From: a virus
Taxonomy: Duplodnaviria; Heunggongvirae; Uroviricota; Caudoviricetes
Reading direction: 5' to 3' (one strand)
DNA length: 45,248 bases
Virus record (IMG/VR): IMGVR_UViG_2529293151_000014
Numbering within the stretch: the stretch's first letter is position 1; each line of letters starts with the position of its first letter. Shown here piece by piece: positions 18,001 to 24,000 of the stretch. Made by a program: the position numbers.

Positions 18001-21000
18001 TTGCCGTAGTGCCGCGACGCCGGGCGCAAGATGCAGAGATTGCCACGGTACAGGCCGTGCGGTTGATATAGCAAAAACAGAGCAGTGGGGGAGAGTTGTT
18101 GAGAAAGAATGCGGAAGATGCAAAGGTGTCGGCTATTCAAGGATGCCAGCAAGCGCAGCATATCGCGCTGTGACGATGCTAATCCCAAACCTTACCCAAC
18201 CCACCTGGTCACGCACTGTTAAGCCGCTGTATGACGCTCTGGTGGTGCAATGCCACAAGGAAGAGTCAATCGCAGACAACATTTTGAACGCGGTCACACG
18301 TTAGCAGCATGATTGCCACGGATGGCAACATATTAACGGCATAATATTGACTTTTTGAATAAAGTTGGGTAAATTTGACTCAACGATGGATAAATGCACT
18401 CGTTAAATAAAGCCCTGAGTTAATAGCTCGGGGCTTTTTGCGTTTTAATCACGACCTTTCTGAAAGCACATCAAACCAAATACCAGACAGACAAAAATAA
18501 TCACCTTATCCGCTGTGGCTACGGTGCGGTGTGCTTTGCATAAAAGAAAACCAGCGCAATGGCTGGCTTCGTGAAAGTGGGTGGCAAGAAGTTGTTGTCG
18601 ATTAAAAATAAATACAAGGAGTAGCTTATGCTAAGCGAAACAGCGAAAGATATCGCAGGATATGAAGGTAAATACTCCGTAACTACTGATGGCCGCGTTT
18701 ATTCTCATTCGAGAGTTGATGCTCGTGGAAGGTTACAGAAGGGCAGATGGCTTAAGCCTGTTAATCATAGTGATGGTTACTTGTATGTAAATCTCCGCGA
18801 CAAAGGAGCACTTAAAAAACATTACATTCACAGGTTAGTGGCGGCTGCATTCATTGATAATCCAAACTCGCTTCCGCAGGTAAACCACATAAATGGAATC
18901 AAGTCTGACAACAGAGTAGATAATCTTGAGTGGGTTACTGGCTGCCAGAATATGGTCCATGCAAGCAAGTCAGGATTGCTAAACCCAATCAGTGGTGAGC
19001 GTCACTATTGTGCAAAACTCACTACTGAGCAAGTGAAAGAAATACGTGCGTGCAAATCAATGTCACAGCGTGAAATGGCGAGAATGTACGGCGTATCAAA
19101 AGCAACAATTGCAGGAATTCTTAACTATAAGACATGGGTTATTTATTAACTAATTAATTAAGAGCTCCCATTACAGGATGCATTTATGAGTGCATCCATT
19201 AATGGTCGTTAAATGCGATTGATATGGATACTGCGCAAACAGTATCCCTAATGGTCTCCTCGCGAAAACTGTGACGAGCAAACAGCGTTACCGCAAAATG
19301 TAGCCTGGATTTGTTCTATCAGTAATCGACCTTATTCCTAATTAAATAGAGCAAATCCCCTTATTGGGGGTAAGACATGAAGATGCCAGAAAAACATGAC
19401 CTGTTAGCCGCCATTCTCGCGGCAAAGGAACAAGGCATCGGGGCAATCCTTGCGTTTGCAATGGCGTACCTTCGCGGCAGATATAATGGCGGTGCGTTTA
19501 CAAAAACAGTAATCGACGCAACGATGTGCGCCATTATCGCCTGGTTCATTCGTGACCTTCTAGACTTCGCCGGACTAAGTAGCAATCTCGCTTATATAAC
19601 GAGCGTGTTCATCGGCTACATCGGTACTGACTCGATTGGTTCGCTTATCAAACGCTTCGCTGCTAAAAAAGCCGGAGTAGAAGATGGTGGAAATCAATAA
19701 TCAACGTAAGGCGTTCCTCGATATGCTGGCGTGGTCAGAGGGAACTGATAACGGACGTCAGAAAACCAGAAATCATGGTTATGACGTCATTGTTGGCGGA
19801 GAGCTATTCACTGATTACTCCGATCACCCTCGCAAACTTGTCACGCTAAACCCCAAACTCAAATCAACAGCAGCCGGTCGCTATCAGCTTCTTTCCCGTT
19901 GGTGGGATGCCTATCGTAAGCAGCTTGGTCTGAAAGACTTCTCTCCCAAAAGCCAGGACGCTGTTGCGCTGCAGCAGATTAAGGAACGTGGCGCTTTGCC
20001 GATGATTGATCGCGGTGATATTCGTCAGGCTATTGATCGTTGCAGCAATATCTGGGCTTCTTTGCCGGGTGCTGGTTACGGTCAGTTCGAGCATAAGGTT
20101 GACAGCCTGATTGCAAAATTCAAAGAAGCTGGCGGAACGGTCAGAGAGATTGAGGTATGAGCAGAGTCACCGCGATTATCTCCGCTCTGGTTATCTGCAT
20201 CATCGTCAGCCTGTCATGGGCTGTTAATCATTACCGTGATAACGCCATCGCCTACAAAGATCAGCGTGATAAGGCCGCATCTATCATCGCTGACATGCAG
20301 AAGCGTCAACGTGATGTAGCAGAACTCGACGCCAGATACACAAAGGAGCTTGCTGATGCTAACGCGACTATCGAAAGTCTCCGTGCTGATGTTTCTGCTG
20401 GGCGTAAGCGCCTGCAAGTCGCCGCCACCTGTGCAAAGTCAACGACCGGAGCCAGCGGCATGGGCGATGGAGAAAGCCCAGGACTTACAGCAGATGCTGA
20501 ACTCAATTATTACCGTCTCCGAAGTGGAATCGACAGGATAACCGCGCAGGTTAACTACCTGCAGGAGTACATCAGGACTCAGTGCCTGAAATAATTTTTT
20601 TGCAAATCACAAAGTCCATTTAATGAGCCTCGCGGTGCGGGGCTTTTTTATATCTGAATTTCACAGCGCATCTCACGCGCATATTAACGAGAGCCTTTCA
20701 GTAAGCGAGCCTGAGAAATGCCGTTATAGGTGGCGACCTCTCTCGGGCGGCTTTTCTGTGAGACAGGCTCACTTTCTAAAAGGTAAAGACGCTATGAACC
20801 AATTAGAAGAAAAGCTTCAAAGAATGATTTCCTTATACAAGGAAGATAACTGCCAAAAAGTTCCTGAAAACATCGCAGAGTTAATGGAATTGGCAAGTGA
20901 ATTTTCTGGCATGCTTAAGTCGTCAGGTGTTCGGTCAGCGTTCTTTGTTGAAATGCTGATGCACGGCGGACTTATGGCAACAATGAGACGTGTAATGGAA

Positions 21001-24000
21001 GACCAGAGAAAAGAACCTCCTCAGGTATACGTTTTGTCATCGAAGAAAACTGGGCTAACCAAAATTGGGTATTCATCCAACATTCCACAACGCATCAAAT
21101 CGCTTGGCAACTCTGGACCAGACTGTTTGAAGCTTGAGTGCCTGATCCCTGGTGGAAGAGAAGCTGAAAACATGCTTCATCGCAAATTTGCCGCAAAGAG
21201 AAAGCACGGTGAATGGTTCGCCCTGTCCAAGGATGACATTGAGGGGTTGAAATCTGTAGCGCTTACTTCTGATGGCTATTAATGCTTGTTTAGAGCAATT
21301 TTCATAACAGCTCTTCATTACAAAGCCCATCTACGGGTGGGCTTGATAATGAAACCGGAATTTATTCTGGGCAACCAGTTACGGCAGTACAGCGAAACAA
21401 CCCAAGCCAGAAAGTGGGGAAATAACACTGGCAGCCACTGAAAGATGAACCTCCTGCCTGATGGCAAAAAAGATTCTTTGTGGTGGCGGACTGATGGAAA
21501 GACATCCTAATCAAGCAACCACTCTACAGGGTCATAATTATGAACGACCAGCAAATCGAAAAAGAAATCGTTGAGAAAGGCAAAACGGCGCCGCGCGTTA
21601 CGCCTCAATATATCGAAAGCATCATTCTTGAAGAGCATTTCTTTACTGCTTATGACGGCATTCGTGCTGCCAATATGGGCGTTGGCGATTCATGGACAGC
21701 GCATAAATCTACAGACCTCCTGACTTTCTGCGTACTGGTGCTGAAGAATGGCTTCACCGTCACCGGAGAGAGTGCCTGTGCAAGCCCGGAAAACTTTGAT
21801 GCAGAAATCGGTCGGAAGATTGCCCGGCAAAATGCTGTAAACAAAATCTGGATGCTCGAAGGTTACTTGCTGAAGCAGAAGCTAAGCGAACAGTAGTTAT
21901 TACAAAAGCCATTCCCTACAGAGTGGCTTTGATAATGGCTTATACCCTACACGGGATAACTTAACTGATATCCCTTTTAACGGATAAACGGAGCACAAAT
22001 AATGGCAAAGCTCACCGACAAACAAGAGCTGTTTGCCCATCCGGATGATGTGTATGTCGGAGAGTGTGTGATTTATACCGGCTACATAAATAAGCGAGGG
22101 TATGGGCAGAAGCACATTTCACGAAAGCCGCACTACGCACATCGAATCGCATACTGCGAAGCTAACGGAATTTCGCTAGATAGCATCAAGGACCTTGTTG
22201 TTAGGCATAAATGCGATAATCCATCATGCGTGAATCCTGACCATCTGATTATAGGTACTGTCGCTGACAATAATCGTGACAGGTCAAGGCGAGGCAGAAA
22301 CTCATACCCTGACCGTTCAGGTGAAAAGAACGGAATGGCGAAATTAAAAGAGTGCGATGTCATCTGCATTCGCCGCGAGTATGTGCGCGGGAGTGTAGGT
22401 AATGGGCTTAGGTCTTTAGCAAAGAGATATGGCGTATCCACTACCATGATTGCTGACATCGTTAATCATAGAAATTGGAGCAATGTTTCGGAGGTGTGAT
22501 TTGAAACAGCTCACACCTAAGCAGGAACTGTTCTGCAGGGAATATTTAAAAGATTTAAACGCCACTCAGGCAGCTATCAGGGCGGGTTACAGCGAGAAAA
22601 CTGCTCGCGCCACTGGTAGCGAGAACCTGTCAAAACCTGACATAGCAGATCGCATTGCTGAGCTAAAGGCTGAACGCAATGAAGAGGTAGGTATAGACGC
22701 TGCCTATGTATTGCGACGGCTGACTGAAATCGATCAGATGGACGTGCTTGACATTCTGCTTGCCAATGGCGAACTGAAGCCGATTAAAGACTGGCCTAAG
22801 GTATGGCGCACAACGCTATCAGGAATGGATGTCGTGGAGATGGTATCCGCAGATAGCGCCGCACTTCTGAAGAAAATCAAATGGCCTGATAAGGTTAAAA
22901 ACCTCGAACTTCTTGGCAAGCATGTTTCTGTTCAGGCGTTTAAAGAGCAAACATCTACAGAAATAACTGGCGTTGATGGCGGTCCTGTTCGTTATGCCGA
23001 TATGTCAGAAGAGTTACTTGAAGAGAAACTGAAGGAGCTTGGTAATGGCAGGCGCTCCAATCAGCTTGAATCGAAACGCTCAGATTTATGAGTTGCACAA
23101 AGAGCTAGCTATCCGCTCAGCAAGAAAAAACCTTCTCGATTTCACTTTGTACACTAACCCCCAATATGAAACAGGCTGGTTTAACGAGCTGCTTTGTGCT
23201 GAGCTGGATTACTTTCTGGATGAAGTTAAAGCCGGAAACATGCCCAGGCTAATGGTGTTTGCCCCTCCGCGCTCAGGAAAGAGTGAGTTGTGCTCTCGCC
23301 GCTTCCCAGCGTATGTGTTAGGGCAGCATCCATCATGGAACATTATCTCGTGCTCATATTCTTCTGACCTGTCAGACCGAATGAGCCGTGACGTTAAACG
23401 CATTATCACCTCTGACAAGTACGCTGATGTTTTCCCTGACGTGAAAATACCTTCAGGACGCAGTTTGGCGGGAGGCATCAACAAAACCGAGCTATGGGAA
23501 CCAGTTGATGCCAAGGGCGAACTACACGGCGGCTCATATCGTTCTGCTGGCGTTAACGGTGGTATCACCGGTCAGGGTATGAATATTGGGGTTATTGATG
23601 ACCCCGCGAAAGATTACAAAACCGCATCGTCTCCAACTTACCAGGAAGCGGTGATGGACTGGTATGACACGACATTCTTCACGCGTGTTGACCCGAAGAT
23701 AAACGGAATTGTCATCATCCTGACACGCTGGCATCAAAACGATCTCGCCGGACAGTTATTAAAACTAGCTGAAGAGGGCGGGGAACGCTGGCGCGTAGTT
23801 AGCTTCCCAATGGAGGCTGAAAAGGAAGAGATTCATGAACTCAACGGTAATGTGTATCGACTGCGCAATCCCGGTGAAATTCTGTTTCCTGAGCGCATGC
23901 CGAGAGAGTTCGTAGAGAAGTGCAAACAGCGCGGTTCTCTTGTATGGAATGCCCTTTATCAGCAACGACCAACCGCCAAAGGCGGGGGGCTTATTAAGTC

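Follow-up and report, generated by a model that had tools for sequence, protein, structure and literature searches.

The locus analysed here raises the question of how an accessory gene, lodged behind the lysis cassette of a temperate phage, is expressed, and how it comes to be exchanged there for unrelated genes. It lies in a 45,248-nt stretch of Caudoviricetes DNA (IMG/VR record IMGVR_UViG_2529293151_000014), the whole of which we call the window, and its central open reading frame (ORF), termed the cargo gene, encodes a protein of the T5orf172/MUG113 family. The answer lies less in the gene than in its surroundings: the main interest of the locus is a portable, structured leader RNA directly upstream of the start codon, together with the codon-exact exchange of cargo genes which this leader frames (coordinates are collected in Table 1).

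The leader has a conserved secondary structure supported by covariation and holds the Shine-Dalgarno (SD) sequence of the cargo gene inside a helix, i.e. it is an SD-sequestering leader. The AAGG of the SD sits 10 nt before the ATG, in the base helix of a long hairpin whose minimum free energy (MFE) in the window is -38.9 kcal/mol (z -3.07), and independent MFE folds of seven divergent variants returned the same architecture. A pseudoknot helix joins the nucleotides adjacent to the hairpin base with an internal loop. Its 3' strand adjoins those of P6 and P5 without a gap, and only 2 nt (AU, 20726-27) bridge the other side, which is the classical H-type pseudoknot geometry. As P4, P5 and the pseudoknot together comprise 17 bp, nearly the same as P1-P3 (18 bp), a folded-back 'paperclip' clamping the SD helix would be sterically plausible. 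The covariance models also take in the first 6 nt of the ORF, to position 20799.

Eighteen distinct leader variants were collected, the upstream regions being conserved even where the encoded proteins are 33-51% identical. In a 27-sequence alignment, 96.1% of pair cells held standard pairs, versus 81.2% in shuffles and about 42% with slid partners. Compensatory changes on both sides were seen in 32 of the 37 hairpin pairs, and the observed values were reached in none of 500 shuffles. Where the SD itself differs, its partner covaries (UAAGG/CCUUA in variant L006; pairs 58-184 and 60-182). The pseudoknot strands were Watson-Crick complementary in eleven different sequence versions, and helices formed with the own partner averaged 6.3 bp against 3.75 bp with foreign partners, a result matched by 0 of 20000 permutations. 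All six pairs of this helix (6/6) were compensatory, with 98-100% of cells paired, in an alignment made by a model that contains the helix. Compensatory variants occur in P0 as well, with weaker support than for the other helices. The structure is very probably real.

The leader of the window scored 159-190 bits on the + strand, as a single copy, and about 21 bits on the minus strand. The frequent G-U pairs and the low minus-strand score indicate an RNA of the + strand, and both a DNA cruciform and an RNA from the minus strand were rejected on these grounds. Other options were also set aside. RNAalifold, run on a MAFFT alignment in which the arms were misaligned, yielded part of a structure, and a different one; the covariance-model alignments took its place. 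An intrinsic attenuator (GC stem plus UUUUCU) was rejected as its U run pairs in P4 and lacks conservation in the variants of HK97 and Klebsiella. The prophage anti-sRNAs AgvB and AsxR map downstream of pR', at the moron site (3' of stx2B in Sp5), outside the leader. Separately, upstream of a distant relative of the cargo gene (P0016, 35% identical; L010, 5875-6007) lies a non-homologous leader, in which the SD (GGAG) and the AUG are buried in a long hairpin, and this suggests convergent translational occlusion in this gene family.

A covariance model built from the window (R1) was used to find the leader upstream of other genes. Before T5orf172 genes it was present in all relatives examined except the most distant one, just described. 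It also precedes Rha genes in Gally, phiKp_30, Sf101, an Stx-type phage, the Hafnia phage yong1, phi80 and P22; KilA-N genes in HK97 (gp73), SE10 and Tbat2_3 and, with P63C, in Providencia; an AntA gene in the Edwardsiella phage EPP-1; an HNH_3 gene in Dewey; an HNH_3+AP2 gene in L017; a gene for a hydrophobic 142-aa protein without a Pfam match in the Klebsiella phage RCIP0098; and N15 gp59-like genes in phi80 (as a second copy) and mEp237. The leader was detected by blastn in 155 phage records, and an identical leader stretch of 133 nt precedes phi80 rha and one of 139 nt precedes HK620 hkbK. The P22 rha leader is related (81 bits by the covariance model). Among complete E. coli genomes, Megablast found the leader in 641 of 5426, mostly before Rha genes, versus 82 for the cargo gene.

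Rfam 15 gave no match at E<=1 in 18200-22600, and within 20600-20810 only chance hairpins far below the gathering scores. No earlier description of a rha leader turned up in searches of the literature, the 1995 rha paper being outside that search. As far as Rfam 15 and these searches show, the leader is undescribed, though it is present in P22, phi80, HK97, HK620 and Stx phages.

Several variants of this arrangement were noted. In phi80 (L067), the annotated start of rha (2593 versus 2629) lies 36 nt upstream of the ATG given by the covariance model, and in P22 (L072) that of orf201 (rha; 2076 versus 2145) lies 69 nt upstream. Both annotated starts are probably wrong, because they fall inside the non-coding leader and the model places the ATG at the leader end. 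The second phi80 copy (4089-4212), before ORF x171.28, is shorter, lacks P6 and has the pseudoknot strand in the apical loop; mEp237 (L071, 1130-1253) shows the same arrangement. In the near-identical prophage L017 (412-1052), the leader-bearing HNH_3+AP2 gene lies between Q and the lysis genes, so that the leader there occupies two slots. In Dewey (L061), a complete leader (1747-1884) precedes the HNH_3 gene, and only the leader 3' arm with the SD (2390-2450) precedes a gene labelled 'transcriptional regulator'. Likewise, in E. coli ES3 (hit H157) an HNH_3 gene with a complete leader is followed by a gene for a Rha-family regulator with the 3' arm and SD only. It looks as if an HNH cassette had been inserted into, or had recombined within, the leader in these two cases, the SD of the second gene then being unsequestered.

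The cargo gene is one of several interchangeable genes which, in lambdoid and P22-like phages, fill the interval from the spanin terminator to the packaging genes. An initial reading made from the sequence alone (the sequence-only reading) had described it as an insert after the lysis cassette, and an accessory gene is indeed what stands there, HK97 carrying a KilA-N gene in exactly that place: homology of HK97 to the window stops at 20699 and returns at 21316, with the KilA-N gene gp73 in between. Phage Gally gives a sharper picture, as a Rha ORF occupies the exact place of the T5orf172 ORF. The sequence on the left is common through ATG+5 (97% identity), and that on the right from 21316. Because of this replacement, the exchange unit is essentially the ORF between two conserved arms. 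Other occupants of the slot include Rha, KilA-N (with or without P63C), AntA, HNH_3 (with or without AP2) and others. Whatever the cargo, the right flank, which looks non-coding, is homologous in HK97, HK106, Gally, Dewey, P22, epsilon34 and Sf101.

Farther from the window, the relatives of the cargo gene follow differing lysis cassettes (holin_8/CHAP or GH19/Phage_lysis), one is flanked by the lambda-like tail genes V and G and another by different, probable tail genes, and all are co-oriented with late genes; the contexts of the distant relatives rest on a few contigs. The leader accompanies the gene, also into tail-gene slots: relatives 47-51% identical carry it in different contexts, among them the one between V and G. 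L004 and L057 have in common an 88%-identical block of ~630 bp, which comprises the ORF with ~120 nt of leader before it and a terminator after it, and which is set in unrelated flanks.

The start of the cargo gene was placed at ATG 20794, which has the SD-containing region just 5' of it and opens a frame of 162 codons. This start is favoured over the in-frame GTG 20758 and ATG 20623, because the stretch upstream is a non-coding leader common to unrelated genes and because upstream indels among the relatives have lengths not divisible by three. Some database versions of the T5orf172 protein (P0001, P0003) start inside the non-coding leader. The G+C content of the ORF is 0.434, compared with 0.49-0.52 in neighbouring genes.

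The gene is already annotated elsewhere, as it is 98% identical to HK106 gp64, named 'GIY-YIG nuclease family protein' in RefSeq, and is found in 82 of 5426 complete E. coli genomes, in one copy each and under the same label. Phage Chlobot also carries it, and farther full-length relatives (33-51% identity) include epsilon34 gp68 and g341c gp64. The protein matches over its full length phrog_4284, a family without known function. A profile search of 1.84 billion representatives returned the T5orf172 domain in 38,361 proteins and the complete ~160-aa architecture in only about fifteen clusters. Thus the gene is annotated and its family known, and the domain combination is an undescribed variant. 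Among the relatives, decayed alleles are known: two are truncated, one has lost residues 15-114 in frame, and a large cluster carries E140G. In a Klebsiella variicola prophage (L011, 6001-7187) the stop of the T5orf172 gene overlaps the start of an Endonuclease_NS gene (non-specific DNA/RNA endonuclease), which suggests a two-nuclease operon.

The cargo protein is a member of the T5orf172/MUG113 family with the catalytic-type residues intact. Two Pfam profiles exceeded their gathering scores, MUG113 (PF13455; aa 90-151, E 6.6e-15, 55.9 bits versus a cut-off of 22.3) and T5orf172 (PF10544; aa 78-150, E 1.7e-10, 41.7 bits versus 20). The classical GIY-YIG model PF01541 stayed below threshold (E 0.2, 12.4 bits versus 22.6), and NCBIfam gave no match. 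The assignment of the C-terminal half to T5orf172, made in the sequence-only reading from a KIG-Y/T...R...GEWF pattern and described there as a GIY-YIG-related fold, is therefore borne out at the level of sequence by significant profile hidden Markov model matches to T5orf172 and MUG113, with the classical model sub-threshold, and the pattern was located at K90-I91-G92-Y93, R100 and G139-E140-W141-F142. In 19 family members, with identity down to 21%, the residues Y79, K90, I91, G92, R100, E125, L128, H129, E140, W141 and F142 are invariant. In Odn, another T5orf172 protein, the glutamate aligned to the catalytic Glu of I-TevI is required for nuclease activity and cleavage (PMC8263062; PMC10448857); the equivalence to R27 and E75 of I-TevI was taken from the published Odn alignment rather than from one of our own. 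Judged by these residues, the cargo protein probably has nuclease activity.

The N-terminal helical region, also noted at the outset, proved to be a predicted three-helix bundle (aa 3-71) without a family match. In the AlphaFold model (predicted local distance difference test, pLDDT, 87.5) the three helices are followed by a beta-beta-alpha-beta-alpha-beta-alpha domain. The N-domain is acidic in nearly all members (isoelectric point, pI, 4.4-5.4) and the nuclease domain basic (pI about 9.4). No annotated DNA-binding domain was found in the cargo protein by Pfam, NCBIfam and PHROG searches. One relative (P0030) is a natural fusion of Phage_pRha, a helical region and MUG113/T5orf172, and it joins the two commonest slot cargoes in one polypeptide.

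Based on these observations, we consider it somewhat better than an even chance that the locus is a hot-swap slot whose cargo, a nuclease gene, is transcribed late and gated at translation, the product being a two-domain protein with an acidic three-helix N-domain and a C-terminal T5orf172/MUG113 putative nuclease domain. The cargo gene would, as a first step, be transcribed only late, in the Q-antiterminated late message that passes through the terminator after Rz. Its setting agrees with this. The pR'/tR'-like pair has positions analogous to the annotated pR'/tR' of HK106, phi80 and P22, the cargo gene is co-oriented with it 2.4 kb downstream, and a scan found only terminator-like hairpins in between. 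All contexts seen for relatives of the cargo gene are phage late operons. The covarying P0 begins ~14 nt past the T run of the post-Rz terminator, so the structured leader is most simply placed in read-through transcripts. As established for lambda, polymerase modified by Q reads through such terminators. The rha gene of P22 has been described as part of the late operon and as regulated by IHF, in whose absence it is detrimental (PMC4936722).

In a second step, the leader would keep translation low or conditional, with CCUUU paired to the AAAGG of the SD at the hairpin base and the 6-7-bp pseudoknot helix, between nucleotides 5' of the hairpin and its inner loop, appearing to clamp the fold. 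That the leader gates translation is, in our view, probable. Finally, the small amount of protein made may cut DNA during late lytic growth and so serve a selfish or competitive end, through homing-type spread or through attack on co-resident elements, which might be its targets. A role of this kind has been proposed for the T5orf172 genes of ICP1 (PMC10448857), and anti-satellite activity has been shown for Odn (PMC8263062), so that an anti-satellite function might be considered here too. We put forward this role of the nuclease tentatively, and would not be surprised by another.

Several observations weigh against this composite reading. The covariation alignments were fitted by models and are thereby biased towards the structure; the slid controls and the independent folds speak for a genuine signal. 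In all variants, alternative folds with a free SD lie only 0.8-11.6 kcal/mol above the MFE. The GIY-YIG fold was not independently recovered by structure searches with the cargo protein, and one large cluster of relatives bears E140G. Structure searches with the N-domain returned generic helical bundles only, with no DNA-binding fold. By comparison, 87% of the studied T5orf172 homing-endonuclease candidates bear Zn-finger or RepA_N DNA-binding modules (PMC10448857), and the recognition of a target is thus unexplained by an acidic N-domain without such a fold. By eye, a weak promoter-like match, TTCACA (20660-65), a 16-nt spacer and TATTAA (20682-87), can be discerned in the leader, from which a transcript would begin at the hairpin base. 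Lastly, the low G+C content (0.434) and the terminators on both sides of the gene in L004 and L057 are moron-like traits.

Because the SD-free folds are close in energy, the leader could work as a switch and not as a simple, fixed damper. A bolder proposal follows this line: the leader would be a new class of pseudoknotted riboregulator, switched by a factor, host state, metabolite or temperature, which gates the 'dangerous cargo' slot (nucleases and DNA binders of the Rha, KilA-N and AntA types) in the late operons of P22, phi80, HK97, HK620, Stx and related phages, underlies the IHF-dependent Rha phenotype and also serves as the left homology arm for codon-exact exchange at the ATG. We regard this as possible, yet doubtful. 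A by-eye look for the IHF consensus (WATCAANNNNTTR) in the leader gave no convincing match.

The exchange of cargo genes invites a different explanation, i.e. that the gene encodes a free-standing homing endonuclease. The enzyme would make a site-specific double-strand break in slot alleles that bear Rha or KilA-N instead, and repair using the conserved flanks would copy the gene in. In ICP1 and T5-like phages, T5orf172 genes are counted among the homing endonuclease genes (PMC10448857). The patchy presence of the cargo gene among near-identical phages, the ~630-bp unit within unrelated flanks and the broken alleles (truncations, in-frame deletion, E140G) would fit such a life history. Furthermore, HNH_3 homing-type genes share the same leader and slot, and the homing endonuclease genes of T4 are typically under tight control at translation. 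However, the protein has no recognisable DNA-binding domain and its N-domain is acidic, the insertion contexts differ, so no common target is evident, and the slot is mostly held by non-nuclease genes, which exchange equally well. Homologous recombination in the conserved leader and right flank would alone explain the exchange, and presence/absence polymorphism at a fixed site, with several sites of occurrence, also fits plain recombination between conserved flanks. We therefore consider homing a rather unlikely account of the locus.

The sequence-only reading had instead favoured a lysogeny-expressed gene behind its own terminator, of a kind often involved in host fitness or phage defence. 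Spelled out, such a moron would have a weak promoter of its own, be expressed in the prophage and contribute to host fitness or, through the nuclease domain, to anti-phage defence. This did not hold up well. The supposed own terminator belongs to the conserved backbone and is present whatever the cargo, being conserved in HK97, HK106, phi80, epsilon34 and Gally and annotated as a terminator in HK106, epsilon34 and phi80. A consensus scan of the + strand of 20653-20793, where a promoter had been expected, found none, and the stretch proved to be covarying RNA structure. The by-eye match TTCACA-16-TATTAA, which speaks for a promoter, has a wrong base where a -10 element ends in its conserved T, and its -35-like hexamer varies between leaders, reading GTAAAC in the otherwise identical leader of HK106.

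The position of the gene, as an extra one at a lambda bor-like site with a G+C content below that of its neighbours, does resemble that of a moron, as does the terminator upstream. The hairpin downstream in the window (21323-21344) has no T run, while relatives (L004, L057) have a true terminator there. PADLOC-DB 2.0 gave a weak match to the candidate PDC-S57 (E 5.9e-6), which offers the defence reading some support, but the match spans only the generic T5orf172 domain of an unvalidated candidate. On the other side, every context seen (lysis genes, V/G tail genes, other probable tail genes) places the gene within a late operon and in its direction, the SD is sequestered by a conserved structure, and the leader is shared with rha, which in P22 has been described as belonging to the late operon. 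Expression in lysogeny, or a role in defence, is thus unsupported and looks unlikely.

Even less probable, in our opinion, is a non-catalytic regulator or adaptor, in which the T5orf172 domain would serve DNA binding or protein interaction and the protein would do a job like that of the antirepressor-like Rha, KilA-N and AntA cargoes. The slot and leader shared with these proteins, the natural Rha-helical-T5orf172 fusion P0030 and the common E140G variant are in its favour, and CapR of the ICP1/PLE system shows that relatives of T5orf172 endonucleases can become domesticated repressors (PMC10448857). CapR, however, retained the DNA-binding part and not the T5orf172 domain, and the invariance of Y79, R100, E125, H129 and E140 in the 19 members is hard to explain without catalysis. 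Finally, it is scarcely credible that the leader block is a DNA-level recombination linker or homology arm only, with an incidental structure, even though cassette exchange junctions fall exactly at the block ends and modular 'linker' ideas for lambdoid mosaicism are old: a homology arm needs identity and not the compensatory changes seen in the hairpin (32/37 pairs) and pseudoknot (6/6), with G-U pairs on the + strand only, the SD is always in the base helix, and the non-homologous leader of the distant relative L010 also buries its SD.

The gene alone adds little, being a known and annotated member of a nuclease family discussed as a driver of phage mosaicism and phage-satellite conflict; its unusual N-domain raises the question of how a T5orf172 nuclease finds its target without a DNA-binding module. 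The leader matters more, as one portable structured element, probably of translational control and absent from Rfam, that is common to a class of accessory late genes in well-studied phages. It provides a concrete object for studies of rha control, including the link to IHF, and it puts right what are probably misplaced start codons in the reference records of phi80 rha and P22 orf201. It also offers a mechanistic view of one mosaic joint: with a conserved functional RNA to the left and a conserved flank to the right, unrelated ORFs can replace one another with the start codon as the exact junction. The switch reading, if true, would supply the missing molecular basis of the 40-year-old IHF-dependent Rha phenotype.

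Table 1. Features of the cargo locus and of its late-operon setting, in window coordinates (aa, amino acids).
Feature	Position	Strand	Basis
pR'-like promoter TTGACT-17-TAAATT, just past the Q gene (17681-18304)	18347-18375	+	promoter scan
tR'-like terminator (late operon start, 18347-18437)	18409-18437	+	scan
Rz spanin gene, end of lysis cassette	20157-20594	+	ORF call; 92-98% identical to HK97/HK106 Rz
Rz1, embedded in Rz	20350-20541	+	ORF call
Terminator-like hairpin after Rz, G+C-rich (20625-20645), T run to about 20652	20625-20652	+	scan
Conserved structured RNA leader (P0, linker, long SD-sequestering hairpin, pseudoknot helix)	20660-20793	+	covariance models
P0 hairpin, GCGC / 7-nt loop / GCGC	20666-20680	+	four pairs, 96-100% paired across 26-28 distinct sequences
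Pseudoknot 5' strand CGAGAG, directly adjoining the long hairpin base	20688-20693	+	pairs with 20740-20745
Long imperfect hairpin P1-P6, ~92 nt	20693-20784	+	folding, covariation
P1, base of long hairpin	20693-98/20779-84	+	
P2, long hairpin	20700-01/20776-77 and 20703-05/20772-74	+	
P3, long hairpin	20707-13/20764-70	+	
P4, long hairpin	20714-18/20753-57	+	
P5, long hairpin	20720-25/20746-51	+	
P6, long hairpin	20728-31/20736-39	+	
Pseudoknot 3' strand CUCUCG, 3' side of the internal loop between P6 and P5	20740-20745	+	pairs with 20688-20693
6-nt bulge in long hairpin	20758-63	+	fold
SD region AAAGGU, 3' strand of P1, paired with GCCUUU (20693-20698)	20779-20784	+	folds
Cargo ORF, 162 aa + stop TAA (21280-21282)	20794-21282	+	ORF call, Pfam, homology
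N-terminal acidic three-helix domain, aa 1-75, pI 5.4	20794-21018	+	no known family
T5orf172/MUG113 (GIY-YIG superfamily) domain, aa 78-151	21025-21246	+	Pfam, family alignment, structure model
Conserved right flank / right homology arm, with hairpin 21323-21344 then GATAATG	21316-21506	+	homology resumes here

The neighbourhood of the slot shows further signs of gene traffic. Two HNH_3 homing-type endonuclease genes flank the lysis and cargo region on either side, one (18628-19149; NUMOD4, HNH_3 and a helix-turn-helix) between Q/pR' and the holin gene and the other (22002-22499; HNH_3 and zf-His_Me_endon) adjoining the small terminase start at 22450. A gp49-family gene (21540-21896; PF13876, N4 gp49 / Sf6 gene 66) lies within a clean 389-bp insertion (21507-21895) relative to HK97, HK106, Chlobot, Gally and Dewey, and phiKp_30 has a gp49 gene plus a Rha cargo. 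A hairpin with GATAATG similar to that of the right flank follows the gp49 gene (21905-21938). The covariance model found no leader-like sequence before either HNH_3 gene or the gp49 gene of the window.

Among known systems, the T5orf172 putative homing endonucleases of ICP1, T5-like and other phages (Barth, Dunham & Seed 2023, PMC10448857) are the obvious point of comparison. They share with the cargo protein a C-terminal T5orf172 domain with conserved Arg and Glu, and the genes in both cases are small, lie beside essential late genes, are variably present and show decayed alleles and modular domain exchange. In contrast, the cargo protein lacks the CapR, DUF723, DUF4397 and RepA_N DNA-binding domains and has an acidic three-helix domain instead, and its gene resides in temperate lambdoid and P22-like phages behind a structured leader, none having been reported for the ICP1 and T5-like genes. 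Homing is putative for both. Odn (ICP1 Gp88), an origin-directed anti-satellite nuclease, likewise combines an N-terminal non-catalytic part with a C-terminal T5orf172 domain, and the glutamate needed for its cleavage is aligned by motif (GEWF) to E140 of the cargo protein (PMC8263062). Unlike in Odn, no DNA-binding domain or target is identifiable in the cargo protein.

The rha locus of phi80 and P22 occupies the same late-operon place after the spanin terminator and has the same leader, but the cargo proteins are unrelated, Rha having a Phage_pRha DNA-binding domain where T5orf172 is found here. In both cases an excess of the cargo product would probably do harm, Rha blocking phage growth in IHF- hosts (Mozola & Friedman 1985; Henthorn & Friedman 1995, as cited in PMC4936722). 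A moron, in turn, is defined by its own promoter and by expression in the prophage (Juhala et al. 2000, as cited in PMC4104026). Lambdoid morons such as lambda bor resemble the cargo gene as extra genes of atypical G+C content between conserved late-operon blocks, with terminator-like hairpins near. The cargo gene differs in its late-operon orientation and in the lack of a consensus promoter by scan, an SD-sequestering leader standing in the promoter's place.

Control of translation by mRNA structure is itself familiar in phages, e.g. in the two-state leader of lambda cIII and the hairpins of T4 I-TevI, mobE and gene e. As in these, the ribosome-binding site is paired in a leader hairpin, and alternative folds with a free SD are close in energy. 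There is, however, no similarity in sequence or architecture, for the leader described here is ~135 nt long, contains a covarying pseudoknot and is portable between unrelated genes.

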